A stretch of 63,058 bases of DNA, from assembly GCA_964575555.1 (NCBI GenBank), contig CAZNRP010000002.1:1-63058 (forward strand), in the 5' to 3' direction. This document shows positions 9,659-25,067 of the stretch, piece after piece; the stretch's first letter is position 1, and each line of letters opens with the position of its first letter. Origin of the DNA: an uncultured Thiohalophilus sp. (lineage in GTDB: Bacteria > Pseudomonadota > Gammaproteobacteria > UBA6429 > Thiohalophilaceae). A program made the translations under genes and the position numbers. The notes under the pieces are model-generated. The model was not told the origin of the DNA, did not search any database, and saw nothing but the letters and a program-made list of their open reading frames with translations.

Positions 9659-11065
9659 ATGTATAAGAAGCTCATGTCGAACCAGAAAACCTGTATTCTC
9701 GTCGTTGACGGCTCCTCTGTGTCCCGGGAAATTCTGTCCCGGATCCTGCGGGAGGAATTAGCGGATAGCGAAATCGTCAGTTGTAAATCCGGTGCTGAAG
9801 CGATGACTTTGCTAAGCACAAGAAAGGTCGATCTGGTCACCACAGCTCTGTTGCTGGCCGATATGGATGGTCTGGCATTGAGCCGTAAAATTCGTGATAC
9901 TTTTCAGCACCCCTTTATTCCCTTGGTCGTGGTTTCCGGTGATGCCGATAGCCGCCTGCTGCGTGAAGGCTATGAGGCTGGAGTAACCGATTACTTCGAT
10001 AAATCAAATGGTTATAAAGCTTTTGGCGCTTTCATTCATGGGTTTTTACAACGCAATTCTGGTCTGGTGGGCAATATTCTGTTCATTGAGGACAGCCGCA
10101 CGACCGCCGCTGTGTTGTTGAAAATCATGACTAAAAATGGACTTGAAGTCACCCATGTGAGCTCAGCCGAAGGCGCATTGGAGATGATTGAAGCCTCGAT
10201 CAGAGAAAATGGAGATAGCGAAGCAGAAGCTATCCTCACCTTTGATCTGGTAATTACCGATTTTTATCTTGAAGGTGAAATGACCGGCGGTGATCTGTTG
10301 CACGCTATTCGTGCCAAGCACCATCTTTCGCAGCAGGAATTGCCGGTGCTGGTACTCACCGGCAGTGATGATCCCAGTACTCAGGTGGAGATTTTTCATG
10401 CTGGGGGCAATGATTTCGTGCATAAACCCATTATTGAAGAAATTCTCATTGCCCGGGTGCGGGCGCTGTTATTGATCAAGCATCAGTTTGATGCCTTGAG
10501 AAAACAGACCGAAACCATGCGCTGGATAGCCGCCACTGATAGTCTCACCGGCGTGCGCAGCAAGCGCTATCTAGTTGATAATGGTGAGGAATTTATTCGT
10601 TTACCCGAAAATCAGGGCGTCTGGGCGATCATCATTGATATCGATCATTTCAAAAATATTAATGATAACCTCGGCCACATCACCGGCGATCACGTGCTGG
10701 CGGAACTGGGTGAATTTCTTAATAGCCATTTTTCGGATGATATGGCGGTACGTTTTGGTGGTGAGGAGTTTTGCCTGCTGGTTAAAAATTGCGATCGGGA
10801 AGCGATTCTCCAGCGCAGTGAGGAATTGCGTGAGCAGATAGAGAATCTGAAACCCGCCGGGGTGGAAGTGAGAATCAGCCTTGGCGTGGCCGGGGTCGAG
10901 GAGCATCCCGAGGCTAATTTGACCCAGTTGATCTCACTGGCAGACAAGGGCCTGTACTATTCTAAGGAAGCCGGACGTAATCGGGTCAGTGTATACGGCC
11001 CCAATGGCCCTGAATTATATCCGGCTTCTAAAATTCCCGGCCTGCAGCAGCCTCGTCAGGCCTGA
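9659..11065 (+). CDS. Response regulator with two receiver domains and a GGDEF diguanylate cyclase domain
   Basis: REC1 (ILVVDGSS...LLLADMDGLAL), REC2 (ILFIEDSR...DLVITDFYLEGEMTGGDLL) and a GGDEF domain with RFGGEEF. Confidence 0.85.
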   Translation: MYKKLMSNQKTCILVVDGSSVSREILSRILREELADSEIVSCKSGAEAMTLLSTRKVDLVTTALLLADMDGLALSRKIRDTFQHPFIPLVVVSGDADSRLLREGYEAGVTDYFDKSNGYKAFGAFIHGFLQRNSGLVGNILFIEDSRTTAAVLLKIMTKNGLEVTHVSSAEGALEMIEASIRENGDSEAEAILTFDLVITDFYLEGEMTGGDLLHAIRAKHHLSQQELPVLVLTGSDDPSTQVEIFHAGGNDFVHKPIIEEILIARVRALLLIKHQFDALRKQTETMRWIAATDSLTGVRSKRYLVDNGEEFIRLPENQGVWAIIIDIDHFKNINDNLGHITGDHVLAELGEFLNSHFSDDMAVRFGGEEFCLLVKNCDREAILQRSEELREQIENLKPAGVEVRISLGVAGVEEHPEANLTQLISLADKGLYYSKEAGRNRVSVYGPNGPELYPASKIPGLQQPRQA

Positions 11066-11180
11066 TGTTTAAACCCTTCTAAAACATAAGACTTCACTAA
11101 TATTGAACTTTTTTGTATATTGGCACTCACAGGTGGTGAGTGCTAATATTCATTATATCTTTGAACGAGGATTACGAATC

Positions 11181-12044
11181 ATGAACAAGAATTTGGCAAT
11201 GCAACTGGCGGTTCCCGTTGGTCATTCAGCTGGGAGTCTGGAATCTTATATTCAGGCAGCCCGCAGCATTCCTATTCTCAGTGTTGAAAAAGAAAGGGAA
11301 CTGGCGCAGTTGTTACACGAGCATGGTGATCTCAATGCCGCTCAGGAACTGATTATGTCCCATCTGCGCTTCGTCGTGCATATCGCCAAGAGTTATAGCG
11401 GTTACGGCCTGGCGCAGGCCGATCTGGTACAGGAAGGCAATATTGGTTTGATGAAGGCGGTAAAACGCTTTGATCCTAGCTTTGGTGTACGTCTGGTTTC
11501 TTTTGCCGTGTACTGGATTCGTGCTGAAATTCATGAGTACGTATTGCGTAACTGGCGCATCGTTAAAGTGGCTACCACCAAGGCGCAGCGCAAATTATTC
11601 TTTAATTTACGCAGTAAGAAAAAAGCCCTGGGCTGGTTGAATCACAAAGAAGTCGGTGCCATTGCCGAAGAGCTAGGGGTGACGCGCAAGGATGTGGTGG
11701 AAATGGAATCCCGCTTGAGCGGGATTGATATGGGTTTTGATGAGCCTGATAGCGATGACGATGAAAGTCACACGGTTGCGCCCGTAGCCTATTTGCAGGA
11801 TATGAGTCATGAACCTTCAGCGCAGGCCGAAGCCAATGACTGGGAAGCCTACAACCATTCACGTTTGAGCAATGCGCTGGCCGATCTGGATGATCGCAGT
11901 CGTGACATTATTCAGCAACGTTGGCTGGCGGATAACAAGTCTACCCTGCATCAGCTGGCGGATATATACTCGGTTTCTGCCGAACGTATCCGACAACTGG
12001 AAAACAATGCGATTAAGAAGTTGAAAAATGCATTAGTCGTATAA
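11181..12044 (+). CDS. rpoH: RNA polymerase sigma-32 (heat shock sigma factor)
   Basis: RpoH box QRKLFFNLR, sigma region 2 ([19 protein letters not shown]) and the position after ftsYEX. Start moved to ATG 11181 (GAGGA at 11167-11171). Confidence 0.95.
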
Positions 12045-12050
12045 AAATAT

Positions 12051-12078
12051 AAGGGCTCCATCAGGAGCCCTTATTTCT
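12051..12078 (+). terminator. Rho-independent terminator after rpoH
   Basis: aagggctcc / atca / ggagccctt, a 9-bp perfect stem, followed by a T-rich tail. Confidence 0.7.
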
Positions 12079-12145
12079 ATACGGAAAGCGGGTTTTCGAT
12101 TTTATAAAAAGAAAAGATCTTGAACCGCAGAGAATGTATTCGGTT

Positions 12146-12197
12146 ATAACCTCGTTCCCATGCTCTGCGTGGGAATGCATACCGTGGTGGCAAAGTA
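12146..12197 (+). repeat. REP-like palindromic repeat, copy 1
   Basis: ataacctcgttcccatgctctgcgtgggaatgcataccgtggtggcaaagta. About 85-90 percent identical by eye to 21555-21605. Core inverted repeat ttccca...tgggaa. Confidence 0.75.
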
Positions 12198-12443
12198 ATG
12201 CGAGATATGGTTTCCACACCGACCCTGGAAATTAGAAACCAGAAAAAGTGAATTTTTCATCAGTTTGTTATCGATCTGATCCTAACTACCAGAAAAAGTT
12301 CAATATATTAAGAGACAGCCCGATGGGAGAGGGGGCTATGATGCGAATGCCTGGCGAGGCATTCACGATAACGACATTTTCTTATTTTTACCTAAAATTT
12401 CTGTAATAATTCCCCATCTCTGTTTAAAAGGTCGTTAACATTC

Positions 12444-13775
12444 ATGTCCTCCCCTATTCAACAAGCGGCTCCTAAGGTTGGATTTATCAGTCTGGGCTGC
12501 CCCAAGGCACTGGTAGATTCGGAACAAATTTTGACCCGTCTACGCGCCGAAGGTTACGACATTACCCCGGAATATGAAGATGCCGAGCTGGTGGTGGTGA
12601 ACACCTGCGGGTTCATCGACAGTGCCGTGGAAGAGTCGTTGGAGACTATCGGCGAGGCACTGCATGAAAATGGCAAAGTGATCGTGACCGGTTGCTTAGG
12701 TGCCAGAGGTAACACCGTACTTGAGCATCACCCGCAGGTGCTTGCGGTTACCGGCCCCCATGCTTTAAGTGAAGTCATGGATGCGATTCACACCCATATT
12801 CCTAAACCGCATGATCCCTTCACCGATCTGGTACCGGCTGCCGGAATCAAATTGACACCGCAGCATTATGCCTACTTAAAAATATCAGAAGGCTGTAACC
12901 ACCGTTGCAGTTTTTGCATTATCCCAGCTCTGCGCGGTGATCTGGTGAGCCGTCCGATTGCGGAGGTGATGCGTGAAGCTGAGGCATTGGCACAAAGCGG
13001 GGTCAAAGAATTACTGGTGGTGTCACAGGATACCAGCGCCTATGGTGTAGATTTAAAATACCGGACTGAATTTTGGGGCGGCCGCCCACTTAAAACGCGC
13101 TTAACCGCACTGGCACAGGCCTTGGGTGAACTGGGGATCTGGGTTCGCCTGCATTATGTCTATCCCTATCCACATGTGGACAAGGTGATCCCGCTGATGG
13201 CAGAAGGAAAAATTCTGCCCTATCTGGATGTACCGCTGCAACATGCGAGCCCGCGCATTCTTAAAGCGATGAAGCGACCGGCAAATATTGAAAATACTTT
13301 ACAACGAATACAGGGCTGGCGTGAGATCTGTCCCGAGATTACTCTGCGTAGTACCTTCATCACTGGCTTTCCCGGTGAAACAGAACAGGATTTTGATGAG
13401 TTGCTGCAATTTATAATGGAAGCCCGGCTGGATCGGGTGGGTGCTTTTACCTACTCTGCCGTTGAGGGTGCCGATGCCAATCAACTGGCTGATCCTGTGG
13501 CTGAAGAAATAAAGCAGGACAGGCTGGAACGATTAATGGCGGTACAGGAAAAAATCAGTACCGAAAAACTTGCCGCCAAAGTCGGTCAGGAAATGACGGT
13601 GCTGGTGGATGGCATTAGTGAAGATGGCTTATTGCTCGCACGCTCTGCCGCCGATGCGCCGGAAGTGGATGGTGTGGTGATTCTGGATGGTGTGGAAGAA
13701 GCAAAGGCCGGTGAGTTTCTTAAAATAAAAGTGACGGCGGCAACCGAACATGACTTAATTGCCGTTGAGTGTTAA
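12444..13775 (+). CDS. rimO: Ribosomal protein S12 methylthiotransferase
   Basis: N-terminal UPF0004 cysteines ([16 protein letters not shown]), radical [11 protein letters not shown] and a C-terminal TRAM-like region. Confidence 0.95.
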
Positions 13776-13950: not shown

Positions 13951-15684
13951 ATGAGCAAGATCCACAACAAAATGAATAATCATCCCACCGGCTTGTCATT
14001 GCGCCTGCATGACTTCGTGCTCTTTACCATCATGGGCATCCTGGCTGGCTGTGGTTTAATTTATGAATACCTGCTCTCACATTATGCCGGTCGAGTCTTA
14101 GGCGCGGTCGAGCAGGTTATTTTTGCCATGATTGGTATTATGGTTGTGTCGATGGGGCTGGGTGCCTTTGCCGCGCGAGTGTTCAAATCCTATTTTAATG
14201 CCTTTGCCTGGCTGGAAGTCTCGATTGCGTTAATCGGTGCCACTTCGGTATTAGTGTTGGCCGCAACTATGGCCCTGGCCAATTTATTTCCTCAAATTTT
14301 AATGCAAACATTTTCTCTGCCGCCCGATCTCATTCCCCGTGGCGGCATGATTATCTGGGCCAATAATATTGCCTCGGCTATGCCTTATGTAGCCGGTTTT
14401 ATTTTAGGTTTTTTTATCGGCATGGAAATCCCCCTCATCGCCAATATTCGTGAACAAATTTATGGCGAGCATGTTGAACATAATACTGGCTCAATCTATG
14501 GTGTAGATTACATCGGTGCGGGTATCGGTGCCGCTATCTGGGTGATGTTTATGCTGAGCCTGCCGCCGACACAGGCCGCCGTGATCACGGCAACGGCGAA
14601 TCTGCTGGTGGGATTATTATTCTATGTGGTATATCGAAAATATATTCGCTTTGGGGTGTTGGTGGTTTTAGCCCATGTTCTGGTGGGTGTGGTTATCGTG
14701 GTGATCGCCTTATATGGAACCGACTGGGATAACGCCATGGAAGATTTGCTCTATAAAGATAAGGTTATCTTTAGCTATAACTCAAAATACCAGCACATTA
14801 CTGTTACTGAGCGAATTATGGATCCGGCTAAGCCGAAAATTATTTCCCTGTTTATTAATGGTCGTTCACAATTCGCCAGCAATGATGAGCAGATATATCA
14901 TTCCATGCTGGTGGCCCCGGTGATGAATGCCTCAGCCCGCCATGAGAAAATCTTGATCATCGGTGGCGGTGATGGGCTGGCCCTGCGTGAAGTCTTGCGC
15001 TGGCAACCGCAATCCGTCGATCTGGTCGATATCGATCAAACGATTGTTGAATTTTTTACCCTGCCCTATCAAAAAGATGGCCGCATCATTAACCAGCCTT
15101 TACTTGAGTTGAACCAGCATTCCTTCAGCGATCCACGGGTGCATACCCATTTTGGTGATGCTTTTATAAAAGTGGATGAGCTGATTCGAGAGGGGCGACT
15201 GTATGACAGCATCATTGTGGATCTGCCCGATCCCAGTCATCCGGACTTAAACAAACTCTATTCCGCACGATTTTATGCCAAACTCAAAATCCTGTTGACC
15301 GGTGACGGGGCTATGGTGGTGCAATCCACCTCACCCTATCATGCGAAAAATACCTTTTTATCTATTGGCAAAACCGTGCATTACGCCGGTTTTATGCATG
15401 TTGAGCAATATCATCACAATGTCCCCAGTTTTGGCGAATGGGGCTGGACCATTGCCACTAAAAATGGGCTTTCCGCCCGTGCCCGAATCGCTCAGAAAGA
15501 TAAGCTGGAAGTTGATGATAACTGGTCAACTAAGGGCGTTATACTGGCAGCCTTCGAATTTAATCAACATTATTTTGAACATCTTGATGATATACACGTC
15601 AATAGAATCAATAATCAGGCGGCCTATAAATATCATCAGGCTGACTGGGAAAAACAGCAGGGCATTTATTTAATAGAAAAATAG
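13951..15684 (+). CDS. Membrane-anchored spermidine-synthase-like aminopropyltransferase (polytopic N-terminal domain fused to a SpeE fold)
   Basis: About 260 aa of hydrophobic helices, then the SpeE-like motifs YQHITVTE, ILIIGGGDGLALREV, VDLVDID and VDLPDPSHP. Confidence 0.8.
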   Translation: MSKIHNKMNNHPTGLSLRLHDFVLFTIMGILAGCGLIYEYLLSHYAGRVLGAVEQVIFAMIGIMVVSMGLGAFAARVFKSYFNAFAWLEVSIALIGATSVLVLAATMALANLFPQILMQTFSLPPDLIPRGGMIIWANNIASAMPYVAGFILGFFIGMEIPLIANIREQIYGEHVEHNTGSIYGVDYIGAGIGAAIWVMFMLSLPPTQAAVITATANLLVGLLFYVVYRKYIRFGVLVVLAHVLVGVVIVVIALYGTDWDNAMEDLLYKDKVIFSYNSKYQHITVTERIMDPAKPKIISLFINGRSQFASNDEQIYHSMLVAPVMNASARHEKILIIGGGDGLALREVLRWQPQSVDLVDIDQTIVEFFTLPYQKDGRIINQPLLELNQHSFSDPRVHTHFGDAFIKVDELIREGRLYDSIIVDLPDPSHPDLNKLYSARFYAKLKILLTGDGAMVVQSTSPYHAKNTFLSIGKTVHYAGFMHVEQYHHNVPSFGEWGWTIATKNGLSARARIAQKDKLEVDDNWSTKGVILAAFEFNQHYFEHLDDIHVNRINNQAAYKYHQADWEKQQGIYLIEK

Positions 15685-15717
15685 TTGACATAATATGTCG
15701 TGCTGACATATTATGTC
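15685..15717 (+). promoter_or_regulatory. Candidate internal promoter/operator: TTGACA plus a 13-bp inverted repeat
   Basis: ttgaca at 15685-15690. gacataatatgtc (15687-15699), spacer gtgct, gacatattatgtc (15705-15717) are exact reverse complements. An A/T-rich -10-like hexamer lies about 17 nt after TTGACA. The site is 26 nt upstream of the yjfI-like ATG. Confidence 0.35.
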
Positions 15718-15742
15718 CTGGTGCTGGATATTTGGAGGAAAC

Positions 15743-16168
15743 ATGAGTAACGAAAAGCTGGAACAATTAATGACAAATTTGGCGGATAGTCAATTATCCG
15801 ATGGCGCAAACCTTTCCCTGGAAATGTTTGATGGCGAAAATGCCGTGGCCTGTATCACAGTCGAAGATCGGGATGAATTTCCTATTTACATGACGGTTGA
15901 TGAAGGACAGATCCTCTGCATCACTTATTTATTTGGTGATGAACAGGTGGCGCAGGCTAAACGCGCACAGCTGGCAGAAGGTATGTTGTTGATGAATGTT
16001 TCCATTCCGCTATCCGCATTTTCCAAAATTGGCAGTCAGTATATTATGTTTGGAGCCCTGTCTCCGCAATCAAGTACGGACGAACTATTAAACGAAATAG
16101 AGATGTTAAGTGACAATGTGCTTGAAGCCATTGATGCCCTGGCAGACTATTTAACGGAGGCTGCATAA
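15743..16168 (+). CDS. YjfI-like (DUF2170) protein
   Basis: Start moved to ATG 15743 (GGAGGA upstream). About 140 aa, acidic. Family recognised from memory (…QILCITYLF…IPLSAFSKIG..YIMFGALS…). Sits immediately upstream of the pspA-like gene, as in E. coli yjfI-yjfJ. Confidence 0.6.
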   Translation: MSNEKLEQLMTNLADSQLSDGANLSLEMFDGENAVACITVEDRDEFPIYMTVDEGQILCITYLFGDEQVAQAKRAQLAEGMLLMNVSIPLSAFSKIGSQYIMFGALSPQSSTDELLNEIEMLSDNVLEAIDALADYLTEAA

Positions 16169-16171
16169 GCT

Positions 16172-16867
16172 ATGAGTATTTTTAAAAAATTAATTACCGC
16201 CGTACGGGGTGGAGCCACGGAAGTGGGTGAAGCCATCGTCGATACACAGGCGATCCGAATCCTGGAGCAGGAATTGCGAGATGCAAAAAAAGCACTGAAT
16301 GATGCGAAAACCAATCTCACCGCGATTATGGCTGAAAAAATGGCCATTAGCCGCAAAGTGAAGGAATTCACGGATAAGGTTAGCGAGCATGAAGCCTATG
16401 TGATGCAAGCACTGGATAAAGGTGATGAGAGCCTGGCTAGTGATATTGCCGAGAAAATTGCTGAATTCGAATATGAGCAAAATATTCAGCAGGGCATACT
16501 CGATGGCTATGAAACGAAAGTTTCCAGCTTGAAGAAAATGATTCGTCAGACTGAACGAAACATTCAGGCCATGGATCGTGAAATCTCGGTGGTGAAAACC
16601 ACGGAGAAAGTGCAAAAGGCTAACGAGTTGGCGGCGGCTAAATTTTCCGGCTCGAATTCATCCTTGCGTAGTGCCACGGATTCACTAGAGCGAATTAAGG
16701 CGCGTCAGCAAAAACGTGAAGATCAGGCGGCTGCCGCAGTGGAACTTGAATCTGAAGACAAGGGCGATGATTTGCAGGCACGCTTAAAAAATGCAGGTAT
16801 CGTTAATTCTGGCAGCTCGGGCTCATCGGTTCTGGATCGATTAAAGAAACAAAAAGAGAAGTCTTAA
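16172..16867 (+). CDS. PspA/IM30 family protein (YjfJ-like)
   Basis: 231 aa, almost entirely coiled-coil. N-terminus MSIFKKLITAVRGGATEVGEAIVDTQAIRILEQELRDAKKAL is typical of PspA/IM30. Confidence 0.85.
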   Translation: MSIFKKLITAVRGGATEVGEAIVDTQAIRILEQELRDAKKALNDAKTNLTAIMAEKMAISRKVKEFTDKVSEHEAYVMQALDKGDESLASDIAEKIAEFEYEQNIQQGILDGYETKVSSLKKMIRQTERNIQAMDREISVVKTTEKVQKANELAAAKFSGSNSSLRSATDSLERIKARQQKREDQAAAAVELESEDKGDDLQARLKNAGIVNSGSSGSSVLDRLKKQKEKS

Positions 16868-17512
16868 ATGGGTTTGTTTAAATCGGTGTTTGGTGGTGGC
16901 AATTCGCCACCACCCTCGAGTAAAATCGAATCACCCGGAGATCTTAAGCCTGGTGATATGCTGAAAATGGAATTTTCCGATCAGGCTTTGATCTCAGGAC
17001 AAACATTAAAAGTCACCGAGCAGCTATTCTATGATTTAAATGCGGTTGAAAAATGTAAAACGATATCAATTTTACAAGGGGTGGAGCAACGGGTGTTGAT
17101 ATCCACCAGCACGGTTAATCCGGAGCGACCGTTGGAGTTGGCGGTGGCGGTATTACCCGAGACTGTATTTAAGATCTTTAAACGCAAACAATTTGTCGCT
17201 ATTTTTGAGGAGCCTGATAATAACGATCATCGGATTAATCGTAAAAATACAGCGACTGAGCAGGCATCATTGCAGGGCTTTATTGCCGAGTCCTATTTTC
17301 AGGAACGCACCAATGAAGCCTATCGGAGTAATAAAGATTGTCGTCATGAAACCTTGTTAGATTCCGACTGGAGTGCCTTTGATTATAAATTAATGGTTTC
17401 TGATGATCGGCAGCATGCCGTTCGTATTGAAGTCTTCGATGGGGGTCGTACTGATGTCTATTTAATTGCTTATTTAAAATTAAATAAAGTAGAAGAATAT
17501 TGGCCTGCCTAG
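16868..17512 (+). CDS. YjfK-like (DUF2491?) protein
   Basis: Starts directly after the pspA-like stop. Length (214 aa) and position match E. coli yjfK. The family assignment rests on position and memory only. Confidence 0.45.
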   Translation: MGLFKSVFGGGNSPPPSSKIESPGDLKPGDMLKMEFSDQALISGQTLKVTEQLFYDLNAVEKCKTISILQGVEQRVLISTSTVNPERPLELAVAVLPETVFKIFKRKQFVAIFEEPDNNDHRINRKNTATEQASLQGFIAESYFQERTNEAYRSNKDCRHETLLDSDWSAFDYKLMVSDDRQHAVRIEVFDGGRTDVYLIAYLKLNKVEEYWPA

Positions 17513-17513
17513 T

Positions 17514-17834
17514 ATGCCTGTAAAGAAAAAAATCCCCCAGTCCTGGACTAAATCTGACAAAAGTATTCGTGCCGTTCAGGTAATATTTGAGTTAGAGCAA
17601 GCACAATCCCGAGCGTTAAGAATTAAAGCCATTGAAAAAGATTTAAGCCCCTCAGATTATATTCGAGCCATAATTGGCCTGCCACAAAAAAAACCGGTTC
17701 GACCCCGCTTAAGCATTAGCCTGTCTACCGAGGATTACCTGAACCTGGCTAAGCGTTATAAACTAAATGCGGATGATAAAAGTAAAATCCGGGAACGCAT
17801 TAAAAGTGAGCTTATAAAAACCACTGAAAAATGA
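17514..17834 (+). CDS. Putative tandem ribbon-helix-helix DNA-binding protein
   Basis: Two consecutive strand-helix-turn-helix patterns: RAVQVIFELEQAQSRALRIKAIEKDLSPSDYIRAIIG and RLSISLSTEDYLNLAKRYKLNADDKSKIRERIKSELI. Confidence 0.45.
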   Translation: MPVKKKIPQSWTKSDKSIRAVQVIFELEQAQSRALRIKAIEKDLSPSDYIRAIIGLPQKKPVRPRLSISLSTEDYLNLAKRYKLNADDKSKIRERIKSELIKTTEK

Positions 17835-17909
17835 TTCTGATGCTATAGTGCTGGATACCCGTCGGTCAGATTATGTAAGCTTTGATGAAAATAGATAAAG
17901 ACGATTCTT

Positions 17910-19025
17910 ATGCATTTTATATTACGATATCTATCTAGAGGACGCGGCCGACTCAAGCACAATATCGGCAATGATTTAATCCAGTCGATAATAAAGTCGA
18001 GCATACTATTAATTATTCTGTTTGCCCTGCATATTGGATTTATGCTGTATTATGAAAACTTAAGCCTCGGCGATGCAGTCTGGCTTACCTTCACCACCGC
18101 CACCACGGTTGGCTATGGCGACCTCTCGGCCAGTACCACGCAGGGGCGGATTGCAACCATTGTATTATTATATCTTGGTGGTATTTTTATATTGGCCAAG
18201 GTGGTAGGTGATTATTTCAATTATCGACTTGAAGTTCGTGACAAAAAAAACAAGGGTCTATGGAGCTGGGACATGCAGGAACATATTGTTATATTAAATA
18301 CGCCGTCGTTTTCCGGAGAGCGTTATCTACAAAGACTGATTAAACAATTTCGTGCGTCACAGGACTATAAAGATACACCGATATACTTATTGACACGGCA
18401 GTTCCCTAACGGCTTACCTGGATTCATTACAAAACTCGATAAGGTAATGTATTACAATGGCAATCCGGGTAACCCGGAGGATTTAGAAGCAGTTTATGTG
18501 GATAATGCCCGTGATATTATTATTCTGACCAAGGATGAGAATGATGAAAGCTCCGATGGACGAACATTTGATATTCTGCACCGCTTAAAAGACAGAAATA
18601 TCAAGGCTAATATTCTGGTTGAATGTGTTGAAGACATTAATCGCAGGCGACTAGAAGAAGCCGGTGCGGACATTGTGCTGCGCCCGATACGCGCCTACCC
18701 TGAAATGATCGTGCGCGCATTTGATGCGCCGGGATCCGAGCGTATTATAGAAAACATGTTCAATAGCGAGGGTGATGGCTATCACCGCTATGAGGTACAA
18801 ATAAAGGGTATGAACTGGTGTGAGATTGTGAGCCGTTTGATTCGAGATAATGCCGGCATCGCCGTGGCCTATATTGATCTGCACAGCAATGAGATGGTAT
18901 ATAATCCTTCAGCCGAGGCGTGTCCAGATATTCAGGCCTTAATTACCATTAGCAAGGACAACAATATGTACAGTAATGACGATGTGAAAGCGTTGTTAGC
19001 GCAGGATAAAACATGCAAACACTAG
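17910..19025 (+). CDS. Two-TM potassium channel with a C-terminal RCK/TrkA-like domain
   Basis: Selectivity filter TTATTVGYGDLS between two hydrophobic helices. A cytoplasmic Rossmann-like domain follows (HIVILNTPSF...). Confidence 0.85.
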   Translation: MHFILRYLSRGRGRLKHNIGNDLIQSIIKSSILLIILFALHIGFMLYYENLSLGDAVWLTFTTATTVGYGDLSASTTQGRIATIVLLYLGGIFILAKVVGDYFNYRLEVRDKKNKGLWSWDMQEHIVILNTPSFSGERYLQRLIKQFRASQDYKDTPIYLLTRQFPNGLPGFITKLDKVMYYNGNPGNPEDLEAVYVDNARDIIILTKDENDESSDGRTFDILHRLKDRNIKANILVECVEDINRRRLEEAGADIVLRPIRAYPEMIVRAFDAPGSERIIENMFNSEGDGYHRYEVQIKGMNWCEIVSRLIRDNAGIAVAYIDLHSNEMVYNPSAEACPDIQALITISKDNNMYSNDDVKALLAQDKTCKH

Positions 19026-19927
19026 GCTCAAAAAACTTCAGGCATCTAATATGGCTATGGCTATTGAGTGCATTATTATTATCTGCCTGCGGTAATCGCT
19101 TCGAAGATCAGTTACGTGAAACGTCTAAAATAGTTGCCGCCAATTTAGAATATTTAAAAAGTCAGCTGGATGGCAAGCAGTTAACAAATTCATTACTTAT
19201 CATTAAATACGCCAATACGCTGAGTCGGCAAAAACCCGATTATGCAGATATTACCAGTCTAATGGTGAAAGAAGCGACATCCGAGGGTAAGGCATTCACA
19301 GCATTAAGCAAACGTCTGGCCAGTGTGAATCTGGCACCCACCAATAATGAGCAGGCCGCTTCTGGATTACAGGAGTTGCAGTTAATTAATGCGGCGGCCG
19401 ATGTGGTCGAATTTAATAATAGCCTCGCCGATGTGGTCAATACTCTGGCCTCCCTGTCAGACGGCAGCCTGCCATTGGTCAATGTACCCGCATCGCAAAA
19501 AGCGTCAGCGCAACAGGCCAATGCCTTAATTGGTAACCCTGCCTATGGTAATTGGCAACAGAATAGTAGTGGCAATTCCTTCTGGGCCTGGTATGGCATG
19601 TATTCCATGTTCAATAATGTTTTTGGGCGATCATATTATGGTTCATGGTCGGGTCGTCCGCATTATAGTTATTACAATAACTATGGTCGCAGTCGCTGGG
19701 GTTCGAGTTCTGATATCAATCGTAACCATGATTTAAGCCGACGTTACCCCAGCCGCTATAATAAACCCAGCGCCGCATCTAAATCACGTTATGCCTCCAG
19801 TCCCAGTCGTTCATCCAGTTATGGCAGTTCAAAGTCTGGTGGCAGTCAGTCATCGCCTTCACGTTATGGCTCGAGCAGTCGCAGTTCATCCTTCACAAGT
19901 TCTCGTGGCTTTAGCTCAGGTAAATAA
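19013..19927 (+). CDS. Lipoprotein with a Ser/Arg/Tyr-rich low-complexity C-terminus (possibly YjfM/DUF1190-like)
   Basis: Lipobox LLLSAC. The last ~130 aa are SYYNNYGRSRWGSSS...SSYGSSKSGGSQSSPSRYGSSSRSSSFTSSRGFSSGK. Overlaps the channel gene by 13 nt. Confidence 0.6.
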   Translation: MQTLGSKNFRHLIWLWLLSALLLSACGNRFEDQLRETSKIVAANLEYLKSQLDGKQLTNSLLIIKYANTLSRQKPDYADITSLMVKEATSEGKAFTALSKRLASVNLAPTNNEQAASGLQELQLINAAADVVEFNNSLADVVNTLASLSDGSLPLVNVPASQKASAQQANALIGNPAYGNWQQNSSGNSFWAWYGMYSMFNNVFGRSYYGSWSGRPHYSYYNNYGRSRWGSSSDINRNHDLSRRYPSRYNKPSAASKSRYASSPSRSSSYGSSKSGGSQSSPSRYGSSSRSSSFTSSRGFSSGK

Positions 19928-19938
19928 GGACATCTAAA

Positions 19939-20838
19939 ATGCTGACAGATTTTATTAATATCGATGTGGACCTGGGACTTTATTACCTGGTGGATTTTTT
20001 AATTGCACTAATACTGCTGACCGGAATGCGTTTTCTTTCCGGGCTGGTGAGTAATGTCTCGGCCACCCATGAAATTTCAAGTAAAGATAATACCGCTTTT
20101 GGTGTATCCCTGAGCGGAGCCATGATAGCCATCAGCATCATGTTAATCGGCGTTATTTCGGGCGATGCAGGCTATAGCCTTGCCAATGAAGCCTTCACCG
20201 TGATTTTATTTGGCGTCATTGGTATCGTCTTAATGTGGTTGACCCGAATTGCCTTTGACCGGATTTCATTTCCTGCATTATCCATTCAGCAACAAATCAT
20301 GCAAGGCAATATGGCGGCCAGTATCATTGATGCCTGTAATATGATTGCAACCGCGATTATTATCAAAGGTGCCATGTCCTGGGTAGATGGAAACTTGAGC
20401 ATGGCCCTGATTGCGGTGGTGGTGAGCTTTATTGCCGCGCAAATTATCATGGCCCTGGCAACTTTGTATCGGGTAAAAGTCTACGAGAAACGTCATCAGG
20501 GGCTGCGCTTACACTCGGCCATTGAAAATAATAATATCGCCCTGGCACTGCGCTTTAGTGCCTATAGAATTGGTATTGCCATTGCTGTCAGTGCGGCCTT
20601 CACCGCAGTTGAATATGATAGTGATGCCTTTGCCAGTGTTTTCATACTATGGTTTGCGATTGCCCTGCTCCTGTTTGTGCTCCTGACCCTGATCGCCATT
20701 GTCATCCGTTATGGTGTGTTACATCGAGTTAATGTAGGTGAAGAAGTGGGTCAGCAGGCCAACATTGCCGTTGGTGCAATCGAGGGCAGTATTTATATCG
20801 TCGTGGGTTTATTGCTGGCGGGCTTGATCGGTGCGTAA
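19939..20838 (+). CDS. Integral membrane protein with two DUF350 (YjfL-like) repeats
   Basis: 299 aa and polytopic. Two similar halves, each about the size of a single DUF350 unit. Sits in the YjfL position of the yjf cluster. Confidence 0.65.
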   Translation: MLTDFINIDVDLGLYYLVDFLIALILLTGMRFLSGLVSNVSATHEISSKDNTAFGVSLSGAMIAISIMLIGVISGDAGYSLANEAFTVILFGVIGIVLMWLTRIAFDRISFPALSIQQQIMQGNMAASIIDACNMIATAIIIKGAMSWVDGNLSMALIAVVVSFIAAQIIMALATLYRVKVYEKRHQGLRLHSAIENNNIALALRFSAYRIGIAIAVSAAFTAVEYDSDAFASVFILWFAIALLLFVLLTLIAIVIRYGVLHRVNVGEEVGQQANIAVGAIEGSIYIVVGLLLAGLIGA

Positions 20839-20889
20839 ATTAAATCGGCTCACAGATAAACTATTTTCAAATTTGTTTAAATTTCAAAC

Positions 20890-21543
20890 ATGAGCTTAAC
20901 ATCAAGGCAGCGCTTGCTTGTTTTTATAGTCGCTGCTTTTATTATCGATTATCTACCAATTATTAATTTGCCCTTTTTATGGAGCCAGACTTTTTTCCAT
21001 GAAATCAGTCATGGCCTCATGGCGATAATAACGGGTGGCCAAATCCATAAAATCAGCCTGAACTTTAATGGCTCCGGTGTCTGTACCAGTAGCGGCGGTA
21101 TTCGCTTTCTGGTTAGCTTTTCAGGTTATGCAGGCAGCGCCCTCTGGGGGCTTCTGATCTATGCACTAGCCGACAGCCTGTCTAAAACTCGGGCAAAATT
21201 CATCGTCGCAAGCATCGCCATCATGTTAGGTATAACTTTGTTGCTATGGGCGCGTGATCTATCCACGATTATTATTCTGATGGTTTTGTTACTCATGTAC
21301 CTTATTCCTTTGTATAGATCTCTCTGGCTCAGCGTGAAATTTTTCATTCAGCTGGTGGGTGTTTTTGTAATGTTGGATGCCATCCGTAGCCCATTATATT
21401 TACTGGATGGCCGTGATCTGGGTGATGGTGCCAGCCTGGCACAAATAAGTATATTTCCGGAAATTTTCTGGGTGGCATTGTGGTTTGTGATAGCCGTGGG
21501 TTGCGTATATTTGCTGTGGACGCAATCTTTAAATAAAGACTGA
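20890..21543 (+). CDS. M50B-like membrane metalloprotease family protein
   Basis: HEISH (HExxH) lies inside the first hydrophobic helices (FFHEISHGLMAIITGG). 217 aa, polytopic. Confidence 0.6.
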   Translation: MSLTSRQRLLVFIVAAFIIDYLPIINLPFLWSQTFFHEISHGLMAIITGGQIHKISLNFNGSGVCTSSGGIRFLVSFSGYAGSALWGLLIYALADSLSKTRAKFIVASIAIMLGITLLLWARDLSTIIILMVLLLMYLIPLYRSLWLSVKFFIQLVGVFVMLDAIRSPLYLLDGRDLGDGASLAQISIFPEIFWVALWFVIAVGCVYLLWTQSLNKD

Positions 21544-21554
21544 GGTGTTCAATC

Positions 21555-21605
21555 ATAACCTCGTTCTCATGCTCTGTGTGGGAATGCATATGGTGGTGAC
21601 AAGTA
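21555..21605 (+). repeat. REP-like palindromic repeat, copy 2
   Basis: ataacctcgttctcatgctctgtgtgggaatgcatatggtggtgacaagta. Same orientation as 12146-12197 and near-identical to it. Confidence 0.75.
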
Positions 21606-21855
21606 TATAGTTAGGGTGGCATGGGTATATGTCTACCAACCGTTACGAATGTGACTGCCAGGGGGAACACTGCGTGGGCACAAAAACGTGTGCACCCTCT
21701 ACCTCTATTTAGATTTGTTCAAGAGACCGCTCTGTGAAAGGGGTGGGGATACAACAGATGTAAATATTTATGCAACGATTAATACTAACAAGTTGCTGAG
21801 TTTGAGCTAGTATTTATTGATATGTCTGTATAAATGATGAATATGTGGGTTATGG

Positions 21856-23664
21856 ATGCTACGTAAACTATTATTGCCGGTAATTTTTATTATCCTGGTA
21901 TGGGGGTTTTGGCTCAGTCCAGATTTTAAAGTCATAGCTGCCGGGGTCTCGATCTTTTTATTTGGTATGTTGTCTCTTGAAAATGGTTTCAAGGTATTTA
22001 CGGGCGGCACGCTGGAAAAAATTCTCAAATTAAGTACCAATCGTCTCTGGAAAAGTCTGTCATTTGGCATTGTCTCCACCACGATTATGCAATCCAGCTC
22101 TTTAGTCTCGGTAATTACCATCTCATTTCTCAGTGCTGGCCTTTTGGGCTTATATGAAGGCATAGGAATAATTTTTGGATCGAATATTGGCACCACAACC
22201 GGAGCCTGGCTGGTGGCAGGTTTTGGTCTGAAAGTTAAAATCTCAGCCTATGCCATGCCTATGCTGGTGTTTGGTGTGTTACTGGTATTTCAAAAATCAA
22301 AAACTCTAAAAGGTTTTGGATATATTCTTACTGGACTTGGCTTTCTTTTTCTTGGCATTCATTATATGAAAGAGGGTTTTGATGCCTTTAAGGAAAGCTT
22401 TGACCTGGCCCGTTTTGCAATTGCTGGTTATCCGGGAGTGTTTCTTTTTTCTGCTATTGGCATTGCCGCAACGGTAGTGATGCAGTCCAGCCATGCGACA
22501 CTGGTGTTGACGATCACGGCTCTGGCTGCAGGGCAGATAAGTTATGAAAATGGTCTGGCTCTGGCCATTGGTGCTAATGTAGGGACAACGATTACGGCCA
22601 TTATTGGTGCAATGAGTGCCAACGAACAGGGTAAACGGCTGGCCGTTGCACATCTGATTTTTAATCTGGTTACAGGGTTAATTGCCATTGTATTTATATA
22701 TAAAATGATGGTGGCCGTTGATTGGATCAGTGTTGAGCTGGGGATCGCAGCTGATGATTACACGCTCAAACTGGCAGTTTTTCATACCCTGTTTAATTTG
22801 TTGGGGGTATTGGTGATGTTGCCCTTTATTAAACGCCTGGTGAAATTTCTTGAAGGGCTGTTTAAAGTTAAAAAAATCGCACGGACTCAACCACAGTTTT
22901 TGACTGATTCTGCGATTGATTTTCCTGATACGGCAAATGAAGCGGTACGCAATGAAACGCTGAGGATCTGGGGTAATGCTATTGATATTTTCTCCGGAGT
23001 TTTTGGTTTTAAGCGTGCAGACATTTTGGGTGATATCGATCTTGATAAAATTGCAAATGAGCAAAAAAATCTCCAGCCCTATGATATTGATACGGCCTAT
23101 ATGTTAAATATTAAAGTATTGTATAGTGAAATAGTGACCTTTATCAGTCGCGCAGGTTTTTCCTGGGAAATGGAACAGTCAGGTGAAATTCATTGGCTGC
23201 GTAAGGCGAATCAAAATATATCTGATGCAGTAAAAGACACGAAACATCTACAAAAAAATCTGAATATATATCTGAACGGCACTAATTCACAGATGCGTAA
23301 AGCCTATAATCGAATACGGGTCGAGTTGTGCCTGTTGATTCGTGAGCTGGAAAATACTCGTCTGGAGCCGGAAGATGAAAGTACTGTGCTCTCACTGGAA
23401 CATCTAAAGTTATTGCTGGATGAGCACCTGTCAAATGTCCATGCATGGTTGTCTCATACTATTAGGGAAGAGCTGATTAGTGCTGAGATGGCCACTTCGT
23501 TAATGAATGATGTGTCCTATTCGACCAATATATTCAGAAACTTGATTGGCATGGGAGAAACCTTGTTTGTTAAGCGTAGTCATCATTTAACGGAAGTTGA
23601 GCAGGCCGTATTATTAGACGAGGTCGATATTAACGAGATCAAAGCACAGACGCTGAATAATTAA
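21856..23664 (+). CDS. Na/Pi cotransporter family protein with a PhoU-like C-terminal domain
   Basis: 602 aa. Duplicated Na_Pi_cotrans-like segments (IMQSSSLVSVITISF / VMQSSHATLVLTITAL) followed by a helical cytoplasmic tail. Confidence 0.85.
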   Translation: MLRKLLLPVIFIILVWGFWLSPDFKVIAAGVSIFLFGMLSLENGFKVFTGGTLEKILKLSTNRLWKSLSFGIVSTTIMQSSSLVSVITISFLSAGLLGLYEGIGIIFGSNIGTTTGAWLVAGFGLKVKISAYAMPMLVFGVLLVFQKSKTLKGFGYILTGLGFLFLGIHYMKEGFDAFKESFDLARFAIAGYPGVFLFSAIGIAATVVMQSSHATLVLTITALAAGQISYENGLALAIGANVGTTITAIIGAMSANEQGKRLAVAHLIFNLVTGLIAIVFIYKMMVAVDWISVELGIAADDYTLKLAVFHTLFNLLGVLVMLPFIKRLVKFLEGLFKVKKIARTQPQFLTDSAIDFPDTANEAVRNETLRIWGNAIDIFSGVFGFKRADILGDIDLDKIANEQKNLQPYDIDTAYMLNIKVLYSEIVTFISRAGFSWEMEQSGEIHWLRKANQNISDAVKDTKHLQKNLNIYLNGTNSQMRKAYNRIRVELCLLIRELENTRLEPEDESTVLSLEHLKLLLDEHLSNVHAWLSHTIREELISAEMATSLMNDVSYSTNIFRNLIGMGETLFVKRSHHLTEVEQAVLLDEVDINEIKAQTLNN

Positions 23665-23694
23665 TATATACAGACTAGCTGGGAGTTTAAAAAT

Positions 23695-23943
23695 ATGAGT
23701 CGCTGGAAGTTGTTAAAAAGATTGAGTGATTATTTCGACATGGGAAAAAAGAAGCAGGAAAAATATAGTTCAGATTTGAAGTCGCTGCTTACGGAAATCA
23801 AGGAAAAAGAAAAAAAGCTGAATAAAAAATGTGTTGCCACCGCAAATGGTGAAAAGCGCAGAATGCTTAAGCGAAAAATTATGGTACTACATGCGAAACG
23901 CAAGAAGGGTTTGAGTGCACTGAAAAAACTTAAAAATAGATAG
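23695..23943 (+). CDS. Small lysine-rich hypothetical protein
   Basis: 82-aa ORF, highly basic and probably coiled-coil. No family recognised. Coding status uncertain. Confidence 0.35.
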   Translation: MSRWKLLKRLSDYFDMGKKKQEKYSSDLKSLLTEIKEKEKKLNKKCVATANGEKRRMLKRKIMVLHAKRKKGLSALKKLKNR

Positions 23944-23964
23944 CATAACTTGCGGTGGTGATTT

Positions 23965-24189
23965 TTATTCCTTTTTATAAACTTCACTTTTGTTGCGCTG
24001 GTATTTTTCGTAGTCCTCTCTTTTTGAACAGTCAGACTCTAATTGTTCAGTGCACTGTTGTTGCCGCATGTTTTCGCCGGTTTCATAGGCGGCTCGCTTC
24101 CAGGTCTCGACATTGCAACCGCCCAGGCAGATTGCAATGCATGAAATAAAGAGGCAATATTTTATGCTATTTAAAAATTGTAATTTCAT
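23965..24189 (-). CDS. Small putative lipoprotein, translationally coupled to the LysR gene
   Basis: Start moved to ATG 24189, giving MKLQFLNSIKYCLFISCIAICLGGC with a lipobox. This ATG overlaps the LysR stop codon (ATGA). Confidence 0.5.
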   Translation of the reverse strand: MKLQFLNSIKYCLFISCIAICLGGCNVETWKRAAYETGENMRQQQCTEQLESDCSKREDYEKYQRNKSEVYKKE

Positions 24190-25067
24190 ATAAATGCTCT
24201 CAGGGTTGAATGAATAAAAGTAACAACAGCACGGACACGTTGGGTATTTCGGAGATCCTGATGGTACACCAACCATATTTCATGACCGGGTATAACGACG
24301 TCTTTAATGAGCCGTTGTAGATCGTTATTGCGGGTGGAAAATAGCTGCGGCTGGATCGAGATACCCAGCCCTAATTTTGTCGCCTTAAGACGTGTCGTTG
24401 TATTATCACTGCGTAAAATACAGCGTGAAGCTGTGATTTGTTTTTCCAGCCATTGATTTTCAGGCAAAGCAGAAAGCGTATCACCATATAAAATAACGGC
24501 ATGATGTTTAAGATCGGACAGCTTATCTACCCGATCATGTGCCTGTGAATAGCTTTTTGAGGCATACAGACCCATTTCCATATCACCAATATGAGTGACG
24601 ACAAGATTGGCATTATCAGGACGAAATAGACGGATCGCGATGTCAGCTTCACCACTGGTGAGATTGGCGGTGCTGGGTGAAACATTTAAGACTAGATTGA
24701 TGCCGGGATGTTGCTGGTAAAATTTGCCAAGTTCGGGAAGTAAGATTTCAATACACAGGCCTTCGGGGATCGCAATTTTAACGCTGCCGCTTATATCTTC
24801 CGTTTTCTCCTGCATTGTCCGTGTTGCTTTAACCACAAGTGAACGCATGGACTGTGATTGTTGCAGAATGTAAGCGCCTTCCTGAGTCAGGGTCAGCCCT
24901 TTTGCGTGACGCTGAAATAATTTAATATCCAGAGCCGCTTCAAGTGCATCAATCTGTCGGCCAATAGTGGGTTGATTCGAATCAAGAAGTTTGGCGGCTG
25001 CCGATAAACTGCCGGTTTCTGCCGCTGCGATAAAATATCGAAATCCGTCCCAGTCAATGCTATTCAT
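24186..25067 (-). CDS. LysR family transcriptional regulator
   Basis: N-terminal wHTH (FRYFIAAAETGSLSAAAKLLDSNQPTIGRQIDALE) and a LysR substrate-binding domain of typical length. Confidence 0.9.
   Translation of the reverse strand: MNSIDWDGFRYFIAAAETGSLSAAAKLLDSNQPTIGRQIDALEAALDIKLFQRHAKGLTLTQEGAYILQQSQSMRSLVVKATRTMQEKTEDISGSVKIAIPEGLCIEILLPELGKFYQQHPGINLVLNVSPSTANLTSGEADIAIRLFRPDNANLVVTHIGDMEMGLYASKSYSQAHDRVDKLSDLKHHAVILYGDTLSALPENQWLEKQITASRCILRSDNTTTRLKATKLGLGISIQPQLFSTRNNDLQRLIKDVVIPGHEIWLVYHQDLRNTQRVRAVVTFIHSTLRAFI

Follow-up and report, generated by a model that had tools for sequence, protein, structure and literature searches.

The question raised by this DNA is whether nine consecutive genes, at positions 13951-21543 of contig CAZNRP010000002.1 from an uncultured Thiohalophilus sp. 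(the window, throughout, is the whole analysed stretch of 63,058 nucleotides), constitute one membrane-related system and whether such a system is new. A preliminary description of the sequence had likened their core, centred on a PspA protein, to the E. coli yjfIJKLMC cluster with further parts added, and had proposed a role in envelope stress or membrane repair. The core of the cluster is an already published operon class and not a new kind of system. Its membership in the class of operons that join a DUF2170-PspA dyad to a membrane-bound SpeE-type enzyme is hardly in doubt, and it is fairly probable that the window carries an extended nine-gene form of the gammaproteobacterial membrane-homeostasis operons described as a second group by Ravi et al. 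2024 (mSystems; PMC11237479). The earlier reading of an envelope-stress or membrane-repair role is plausible, and we put the chances that the cluster serves envelope or membrane stress homeostasis at about even.

The nine-gene cluster and its relatives

The open reading frame (ORF) listing gives nine co-directional genes on the + strand, with coordinates identical to those reported earlier and here called g1 to g9. The protein of g1 (13951-15684) combines seven predicted transmembrane (TM) helices (approximately residues 1-256) with a SpeE-fold aminopropyltransferase domain (approximately residues 266-570). It is followed by g2, of the DUF2170/YjfI/BacA type with a CesT-like fold (15743-16168, or from 15713 according to the ORF caller), g3, a PspA/IM30 protein of the ESCRT-III superfamily and of the YjfJ type (16172-16867), and g4, predicted to be soluble, beta-rich and DUF4178-related with a conserved N-terminal MGxFKxxFG peptide (16868-17512). 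The product of g5 (17514-17834), with 106 residues and two ribbon-helix-helix (RHH)-like repeats, is a probable repressor acting at palindromes. The remaining genes encode a 2TM K+ channel with a TVGYGD filter and a C-terminal RCK-like domain (g6, 17910-19025), a lipoprotein with a Ser/Arg/Tyr/Gly-rich tail (g7, 19013-19927), an 8TM membrane protein with two DUF350 (YjfL-like) repeats (g8, 19939-20838) and a predicted M50B-like polytopic zinc metalloprotease (g9, 20890-21543). From g1 to g9 the intergenic gaps, counted from the ORF-caller starts, are 28, 3, 0, 1, 75, -13, 11 and 51 nucleotides (nt), the first becoming 58 nt if g2 begins at the ATG at 15743. A terminator scan found no + strand terminator-like site in any of these gaps; the three that it did find on this strand are internal to g1, g4 and g9, and with 4 on both strands together the count is below the shuffle expectation of 8.6.

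The family assignments proposed earlier held for eight of the nine genes, the polyamine-type enzyme, the K+ channel, the probable RHH protein and the M50B protease included; that of g4 did not. Profile searches with Pfam and NCBIfam placed six genes (g1, g2, g3, g6, g8 and g9) above curated cut-offs. For g2 the Pfam DUF2170 match is 112 bits, and the DUF2170 family protein of PDB entry 8q8o is matched at E 1.7e-9. For g3 the PspA_IM30 match is 136 bits (cut-off 33.9) over residues 2-229 of 231, and the alignment with E. coli YjfJ runs over the full length at 33% identity (E 2e-32). The two genes are adjacent and co-directional, 3 nt apart.

Related loci were sampled in two ways. A scan with a g4 profile over one genome per GTDB species yielded 34 loci, all of them in Gammaproteobacteria that are uncultured or marine (Thiohalophilus, Chromatiales, Cycloclasticus, Thiotrichaceae, Thioalkalispiraceae, Methylomarinum and Methylococcales), and look-ups of distant g4 relatives gave 11 more, with L045 lying on the same contig as L033; overall, 46 loci were sampled. 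The gene content was read from tblastn and blastp comparisons with all nine window proteins. All nine genes occur in the order of the window at 22 loci, including L033/L045 (34-59% identity), L042 and L046, the complete genome of a Gigantopelta endosymbiont. The same nine are permuted in L041 (M50B-lipoprotein-DUF350-SpeE-DUF2170-PspA-g4-RHH-K+ channel). Eight families, lacking M50B and with the lipoprotein and DUF350 genes in front, are found in Marinicella sp. W31 (L037), in the near-identical metagenomic locus L039, and in L040 and L043. Shewanella acanthi (L036) has seven families together with a K+ channel of a different type, and L038 has seven families only. Shorter forms comprise g2-g9 without g1 in four Methylomarinum-type loci (L019, L020, L023 and L029, the last with g9 inverted and no match to g8), g1-g5 only in two Thiotrichaceae genomes (L015; L030 and L034), and a minimal DUF2170-PspA-g4 set in Candidatus Kentrum (L044, 3665-5536), which has no SpeE, RHH or operator. 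A side observation is that in L031 (450-1585) the DUF2170 gene is directly followed by the g4 homologue, with no PspA gene between them.

This census bears out the earlier view of one conserved unit around a YjfJ-type PspA, in which the SpeE fusion, the K+ channel, the RHH protein and the M50B protease repeatedly co-occur. With the nine families in the same order at 22 further loci, and in unrelated surroundings, chance falls far short of explaining the arrangement; the window's own neighbours (rpoH, rimO and the Na/Pi cotransporter gene) are not conserved beside the cluster elsewhere. Co-inheritance through the permutation of gene order shows, at the level of such comparisons, that the K+ channel, the lipoprotein, the 8TM DUF350 protein and, in a subset of loci, the M50B protease belong to the same system.

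The suspicion that comparative studies of Psp systems might already cover the cluster proved right, since Ravi et al. describe three operon groups built on the CesT/Tir(DUF2170)-PspA dyad (PMC11237479). The archetype of their second group is SO_3765/SO_3766 of Shewanella oneidensis, with RHH present 'in some cases', and their Table S3 gives for SO_3765 the order lipoprotein(+low complexity)->DUF350->TM+Spermine_synth->DUF2170->PspA->DUF4178->RHH (PMC11237479). Seven families are common to that group and the window (lipoprotein with low-complexity tail, 8TM DUF350, TM+Spermine_synth, DUF2170, PspA, DUF4178-like and a probable RHH), the internal order SpeE-DUF2170-PspA-DUF4178-RHH is identical, and the window proteins are 28-51% identical to their S. 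acanthi orthologues. However, the lipoprotein and DUF350 genes of the window lie downstream of the RHH gene and not upstream of SpeE, and the window adds an RCK-type K+ channel and an M50B protease. The text of Ravi et al. names no M50 or other protease, and no channel for group 2 (PMC11237479); the conserved operator pair and the internal promoter described below are likewise absent from the published description. The new elements are the recurrent RCK channel, the M50B protease (a rhomboid in one locus), the S-adenosylmethionine decarboxylase (AdoMetDC) head gene that is frequent in relatives but absent from the window, the re-assignment of g4 and the operator pair.

The E. coli yjfIJKLMC cluster itself belongs to the third group of the same authors, with an ATP-grasp ligase, DUF2491, DUF1190, a 4TM DUF350 protein and a K+ channel (PMC11237479). 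The earlier comparison of the window's genes with that cluster gives way to the second group as a separate class. The window shares the following with yjfIJKLMC and with bacABCDEF of P. aeruginosa: the dyad is followed by a protein of about 215 residues with an MGFFxxLFG N-terminus and then by DUF350, and there is a lipoprotein with a Ser/Gly/Arg-rich tail, a polyamine-related enzyme and, in some members, a K+ channel (PMC11237479). The differences are that their enzyme is of the ATP-grasp type (YjfC) whereas that of the window is SpeE-like, Pfam and NCBIfam giving no ATP-grasp or GspS family among the nine window proteins; that their post-PspA protein is DUF2491 whereas g4 is DUF4178-like; and that their DUF350 protein has 4TM whereas that of the window is doubled to 8TM. 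YjfM is a DUF1190 protein, whereas g7 resembles it in tail composition alone (BLASTP E 0.39, no DUF1190 match in Pfam). For bac a sigma-54 site has been proposed (PMC10948618), whereas the window has a sigma-70-like promoter with RHH-type palindromes. The classical pspF-pspABCDE system shares with the nine-gene cluster a PspA/IM30 effector and, as proposed here, autoregulation by a factor encoded in the cluster; however, the nine proteins include no PspF, PspB or PspC, there is no sigma-54 signature and the partners are entirely different.

A palindrome pair upstream of the DUF2170 gene

The best score in the promoter scan was obtained for a sigma-70-type promoter-like site on the + strand between g1 and g2 (15685-15714; TTGACA, 18 nt, TATTAT; 11/12). 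The intergenic stretches before g1 and before g2 gave no match to a sigma-54 (-24/-12) promoter. Two operator-like palindromes overlie the sigma-70-type site, GACATAATATGTC at 15687-15699 over the -35 hexamer and GACATATTATGTC at 15705-15717 over the -10 hexamer. The g1-g2 spacer reads TAG-TTGACATAATATGTC-GTGCT-GACATATTATGTC, which amounts to two copies of the 13-bp palindrome GACATAWTATGTC with the core CATAWTATG, and this pair accounts for all exact copies in the 63-kb window. The ATG chosen for g2 by the ORF caller (15713) falls within the second palindrome. The true start of g2 is almost certainly the ATG at 15743, judging from the alignment of start codons across all relatives and a GGAGG Shine-Dalgarno sequence at 15734-15738.

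Of the 42 evaluable loci, 37 have the palindrome pair immediately 5' of the DUF2170 gene, in a spacer that otherwise diverges; its carriers include Shewanella acanthi (L036), the Marinicella-type loci L037 and L039, L040-L043 and L046. In an alignment of 8 loci the TTGACA and -10 positions are invariant. Uniform base composition would predict about 5 copies of the core CATAWTATG in the 683 kb of fetched sequence; there are 92, most of them just upstream of g2. Across lineages the spacing between the palindromes ranges from 15 to 34 bp and each 13-mer remains palindromic, for which reason we regard them as sites probably bound by a protein and not as parts of an RNA hairpin. A terminator function of the inverted repeat at 15687-15717 was also considered and rejected, given the lack of a + strand T-run, the palindromic nature of each 13-mer and the variable spacing.

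The cluster's own RHH protein, g5, is the most likely ligand of this operator pair. Alignment reading gives for each repeat of g5 a beta strand, a helix, a turn and a helix. Profile matches are weak (Pfam NikA-like RHH at E 0.027; hhalign 21% for CopG and 7% for Arc, both in the correct register). The S. acanthi orthologue of g5 (L036; 38% identity) occupies the place for which Table S3 of Ravi et al. lists an RHH in S. oneidensis. The operator is GCCATAWTATGGC in the Marinicella-type loci L037 and L039 and GGCATAWTATGCC in L040, so that the outer bases have changed symmetrically, from GAC..GTC to GCC..GGC or GGC..GCC. Where these bases differ, both predicted RHH strands are altered as well (RAVQ to KKVQ or KKMQ; SIS or TVS to GVS or GLS). 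In the Kentrum locus L044, the sole locus without an RHH homologue, the palindromes are likewise absent. It is because of the variable spacing, the co-variation of operator and RHH strands and the joint absence in Kentrum that g5 is put forward as the palindrome binder, and autoregulation through this operator is likely. As far as our literature search showed, the pair, a probable RHH operator, has been described nowhere before.

Single extra copies of the operator are present at the operon head in S. acanthi (L036) and directly before the AdoMetDC gene in L037 and L039. A third exact copy is found just 3' of the M50B gene in L003 (15400) and L005 (14156), where it may control the gene that follows. 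In the four Methylomarinum-type loci without g1 (L019 8985, L020 12584, L023 7299, L029 10904), the coding sequence of the K+ channel contains a palindrome variant, CCCATAATATGGG(C/T), which could be due to coding conservation or be an internal site.

A profile search of the PDB with g5 gave one weak match only. The MIT domain of Vps4 binds the tails of ESCRT-III proteins, and PspA is ESCRT-III-like. Residues 73-101 of g5 (17730-17816) match helices 2-3 of the Vps4 MIT domain at E 0.15; since this stretch can also be read as the second RHH repeat, the match was attributed to chance.

The enzyme, the post-PspA protein and the envelope-side genes

The enzyme encoded by g1 matches NCBIfam PRK03612 (membrane polyamine aminopropyltransferase) with 575 bits (cut-off 472) and Pfam Spermine_synth at residues 313-505 (E 1.5e-32), with hydrophobic segments across residues 22-256. 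Aminopropyltransferases of solved structure in the PDB align to residues ~266-536 only (E 4e-25). The motifs GGGDG, VDLVDID, GDAF and D-L-P-D-P (VDLPDP) are kept; from general knowledge of SpeE structures, we take them to be the Rossmann motifs that bind decarboxylated S-adenosylmethionine (dcAdoMet) and the catalytic D-x-x-D-P. Orthologues of g1 are 46-64% identical in all distant loci. In 10 loci (L010, L014, L016, L017, L018, L021, L022, L025, L026 and L034) g1 is preceded by a co-directional class 1b AdoMetDC gene, which Pfam confirms for L010 (6621-7037; AdoMet_dc 115 bits; LAESHISVHTWPE motif). L046 has the gene too, as have the Marinicella-type loci L037 and L039, where it heads the operon; in L028 it is reduced to a 49-residue remnant.

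A link of membrane (MFS-like)-spermidine synthase fusions to AdoMetDC and DUF350 was reportedly noted by Li et al. in 2019. The bacteria bearing the fusion are said to lack spermidine, homologous fusions to be negative for spermidine synthesis, and the fusion to fail to complement an E. coli speE mutant. In those clusters the fusion is reportedly linked to DUF350 as in the window, and to AdoMetDC as in many of its relatives; the window, however, lacks AdoMetDC, and that study reportedly concerned enzymes and not PspA, a channel or a protease. Ravi et al. refer to the same work on the linkage with AdoMetDC and on 'aminopropylation of other substrates' (PMC11237479).

The gene following PspA, g4, had been called YjfK-like (DUF2491) in the preliminary description. 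That assignment was dropped: g4 itself has no Pfam match, its relatives likewise score nothing on DUF2491, and a profile of close homologues gave an hhalign probability of 1% against E. coli YjfK, which scores 239 bits on DUF2491. A deeper g4 profile aligns with the first ~60 residues of YjfK (58 columns; hhalign 80%, E 1.3e-5). An exhaustive HMMER search gathered a small family of 160 representatives at 50% clustering, nearly all of about 210 residues; Pfam DUF4178 is matched by 23 of the 74 that were scanned (best E 1.5e-6), and UniRef labels members either 'DUF4178' or 'DUF2491'. The Shewanella acanthi orthologue, at the SO_3766 position, is 28% identical to g4 (E 1e-21). An AlphaFold2 model from an alignment of 47 sequences (pLDDT 88.7) is beta-rich with a disordered N-terminal peptide, an earlier model from 19 close homologues having been unusable (pLDDT 41). 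A Foldseek search of the better model against the PDB gave no meaningful match (best E 0.037, TM 0.2) and no functional lead from the fold. On these comparisons g4 is a divergent DUF4178-related protein that occupies the post-PspA position of YjfK and shares its N-terminal peptide. This peptide, MG(L/F)F(K/Q)xxFG, is common to g4 (16868-16930, residues 1-20) and YjfK (residues 1-20; L035 8303-8362), which points to a shared short motif for binding or membrane anchoring in the gene after PspA.

In the channel encoded by g6, Pfam recognises Ion_trans_2 at residues 33-101 (with TTVGYGD at 66-72), Slo-like_RCK (42 bits, cut-off 24) and TrkA_N; no GxGxxG motif was found in the RCK-like domain. The TVGYGD filter is kept in the orthologues, which are 36-48% identical in L037, L040, L041 and L042, and by this measure the RCK-type channel is an orthologous and recurrent member of the system. 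The lipoprotein g7 has the lipobox LLLSAC|G and a tail of 119 residues with 33% Ser and about 11% each of Arg, Tyr and Gly. It is 30-40% identical to lipoproteins of Shewanella, Marinicella and other loci (35% over 311 residues for S. acanthi), and its counterpart in Ravi et al. is the 'LipoSIG+Ctha_1186+Low-comp' protein. The tail (19568-19927) is Ser/Arg/Tyr/Gly-rich in all orthologues and keeps a W(S/A)GRxxYSYY(N/D)xxGR motif; it ends in ...R-G-(G)-K in six orthologues and in ...R-G-F-S-S-G-K in the window.

The DUF350 match of g8 (Pfam 127 bits, E 5.8e-37) comprises two stretches, and its orthologues are 31-49% identical. For g9 the Pfam Peptidase_M50B match is 133 bits, and HEISHG (37-42), LLDGR (171-175) and xDGR..GDGA are invariant in 8 orthologues; these motifs are those expected of a predicted active site-2-protease-like enzyme (HExxH and a downstream Asp). 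Orthologues of g9 occur in L033/L045, L041, L042 and L046, the identity of M50B across the lineages compared being 44-46%, and as far as such matches go the protease recurs in a subset of loci, including L041 with its different gene order. In L040 (12175-12684) a rhomboid protease (Pfam 70.6 bits) follows the K+ channel in the place where other loci have M50B or no gene, and it may be a functional replacement by another intramembrane protease family.

Upstream of the cluster (from 9659-13775) lie genes for a double-receiver GGDEF response regulator, a sigma-70-family factor (RpoH-like by eye) and a RimO/MiaB-type radical-SAM enzyme, and downstream (21856-25067) those for a Na/Pi cotransporter and a LysR regulator. 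In L043 (3518-4837) the cluster likewise has a RimO-like gene beside it, in divergent orientation, probably by coincidence. The GC content is 0.41-0.46 over the cluster and just downstream (window 14001-24000; 0.43-0.46 for the cluster itself) against 0.47-0.51 upstream. No integrase, tRNA or repeat boundary was seen around the cluster, and the whole 63-kb window has no match to Rfam RNA elements or riboswitches and likewise no tRNA. The g5-g6 spacer is about 0.7 kb in L003, L020 and L029, and in L046 (11399-13504) it holds a gene for a 701-residue Pel9A-like beta-helix protein.

Weighing the explanations

The explanation that we favour is one of membrane homeostasis under local control. In this proposal g5 would bind the palindromes and autorepress the core unit DUF2170-PspA-DUF4178-like-RHH, from which it would follow that there are at least two nested transcription units, g1 being transcribed from a promoter of its own and the genes from g2 on from the regulated internal promoter. 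From what is known of the family, PspA would assemble into membrane-stabilising polymers like those of ESCRT-III where the inner membrane is damaged or curved. The DUF2170 protein, with its CesT-like fold, would either hold PspA in check as a chaperone or negative regulator or dampen its expression, in line with the effect of deleting bacA in P. aeruginosa. There, bacABCDEF is co-transcribed, and the bacA deletion raises BacB-F by 6-13 fold and impairs biofilm and rhamnolipid production; the crystal structure of BacA (PDB 8q8o) is CesT-like (PMC10948618). The g1 enzyme would use dcAdoMet to aminopropylate a membrane-proximal acceptor other than putrescine. The channel, the lipoprotein, the DUF350 protein and the protease would act as envelope-side sensors or effectors, so coupling the state of the envelope to K+ flux or membrane potential and to proteolytic processing.

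Several points weigh against this explanation. The modules are clearly separable and the nine-gene system is not obligatory, as judged from the relatives that lack g1 (L019, L020, L023, L029) or g6-g9 (L015, L030). The g5-g6 gap, at 75 nt the largest of the cluster, has taken up insertions of 0.7-2 kb in some loci, and g6-g9 may be transcribed separately with this junction as the boundary of a transcription unit. Profile support for the RHH fold of g5 is weak, and the proposed link between operator and RHH protein draws on co-occurrence and two co-varying lineages. A tblastn search at E<=10 across the 63 kb found no AdoMetDC to supply dcAdoMet. The topology of g1 poses a similar difficulty: a manual positive-inside count over its loops (window 13951-14720) gave 8 K/R on the N-terminal side against 2 on the other side, which together with seven TM segments would place the SpeE domain outside the cytoplasm, at odds with a cytoplasmic supply of dcAdoMet. 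This orientation is weakly indicated, as it depends on manual loop counting, and the hydropathy script was too noisy to settle the topology. Lastly, the literature search returned no experimental work on the SpeE-type operon, on SO_3763-3766 or on an aminopropyltransferase together with PspA. The earlier statement that the system has no experimental description stands to that extent, but not for the related bacABCDEF, for which phenotypes, proteomics and the BacA structure are available (PMC10948618).

The main alternative, which we consider improbable though worth attention, is an operon for polyamine biosynthesis or export, with g1 as a true synthase of spermidine, norspermidine or a long-chain polyamine (AdoMetDC being encoded elsewhere), its transporter-like domain exporting the product or coupling synthesis to the membrane, and the other genes buffering the membrane or ionic consequences. 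The score of g1 above the NCBIfam equivalog cut-off for 'polyamine aminopropyltransferase', its intact SpeE catalytic motifs and the AdoMetDC genes linked to it in many relatives all fit such an enzyme, and the sister operons of group 3 carry the peptide-spermidine ligase YjfC (PMC11237479). Several relatives, however, keep g2-g9 without g1, so that the rest is independent of it. The lack of spermidine and of speE complementation reported by Li et al. 2019 also speaks against a free polyamine as the product. So does the phrase on other substrates adopted by Ravi et al. (PMC11237479). A more speculative reading, to which we give long odds, takes the topology of g1 at face value: the SpeE domain would be periplasmic, the transporter-like domain would deliver dcAdoMet, and an envelope macromolecule, not a free polyamine, would be aminopropylated. 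The acceptor might then be a lipid headgroup of the membrane or the co-inherited g7 lipoprotein, by way of its conserved Ser/Arg/Tyr-rich tail (...R-G-G-K). If true, this would be a new kind of protein or lipid modification under the control of the PspA/RHH circuit, read out through the RCK K+ channel and the intramembrane protease.

That the cluster falls into two or three neighbours without a functional connection (a polyamine enzyme, four genes forming a Psp-like unit, and unrelated membrane proteins), adjacent by lineage history only, seems unlikely, slightly more so than a periplasmic g1. The internal promoter before g2, the insertion-tolerant g5-g6 gap and the natural variants without g1 or g6-g9 fit such a history; however, the families stay together across 46-64% identity in g1 and through the change of order between L041 and the window, the flanking genes are not conserved, and the set of seven families was found independently in Shewanella by Ravi et al. 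(PMC11237479). The extra operators before the lipoprotein or AdoMetDC genes (L036, L037, L039) moreover tie the outer genes to the same regulator. Least probable of all, and scarcely to be expected, is an anti-phage or abortive-infection system in which the 'phage shock' protein, the channel and the protease act as effectors. Membrane-depolarising channels and proteases do occur in some defence systems, the GC content of the cluster is slightly below that of its upstream flank and its genomic position varies. Against this, PADLOC yields generic methyltransferase-fold and coiled-coil matches only, there is no nuclease, NTPase or typical defence sensor and no neighbouring defence or mobile gene, and entire gammaproteobacterial orders carry the cluster stably in single copy.

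Operons with a YjfJ-type PspA are widespread, and the window adds nothing categorically new to them, but the comparison sharpens the problem that they pose. It delimits a minimal core, DUF2170-PspA-DUF4178-like-RHH, which has a conserved operator and promoter and is proposed to be autoregulated, and it marks the RCK K+ channel as a regular member and an intramembrane protease as a recurrent one. Cultivable carriers suited to testing exist in Shewanella, Marinicella and Cycloclasticus. The operator provides an immediate experimental handle, and could lead to the inducing signal.

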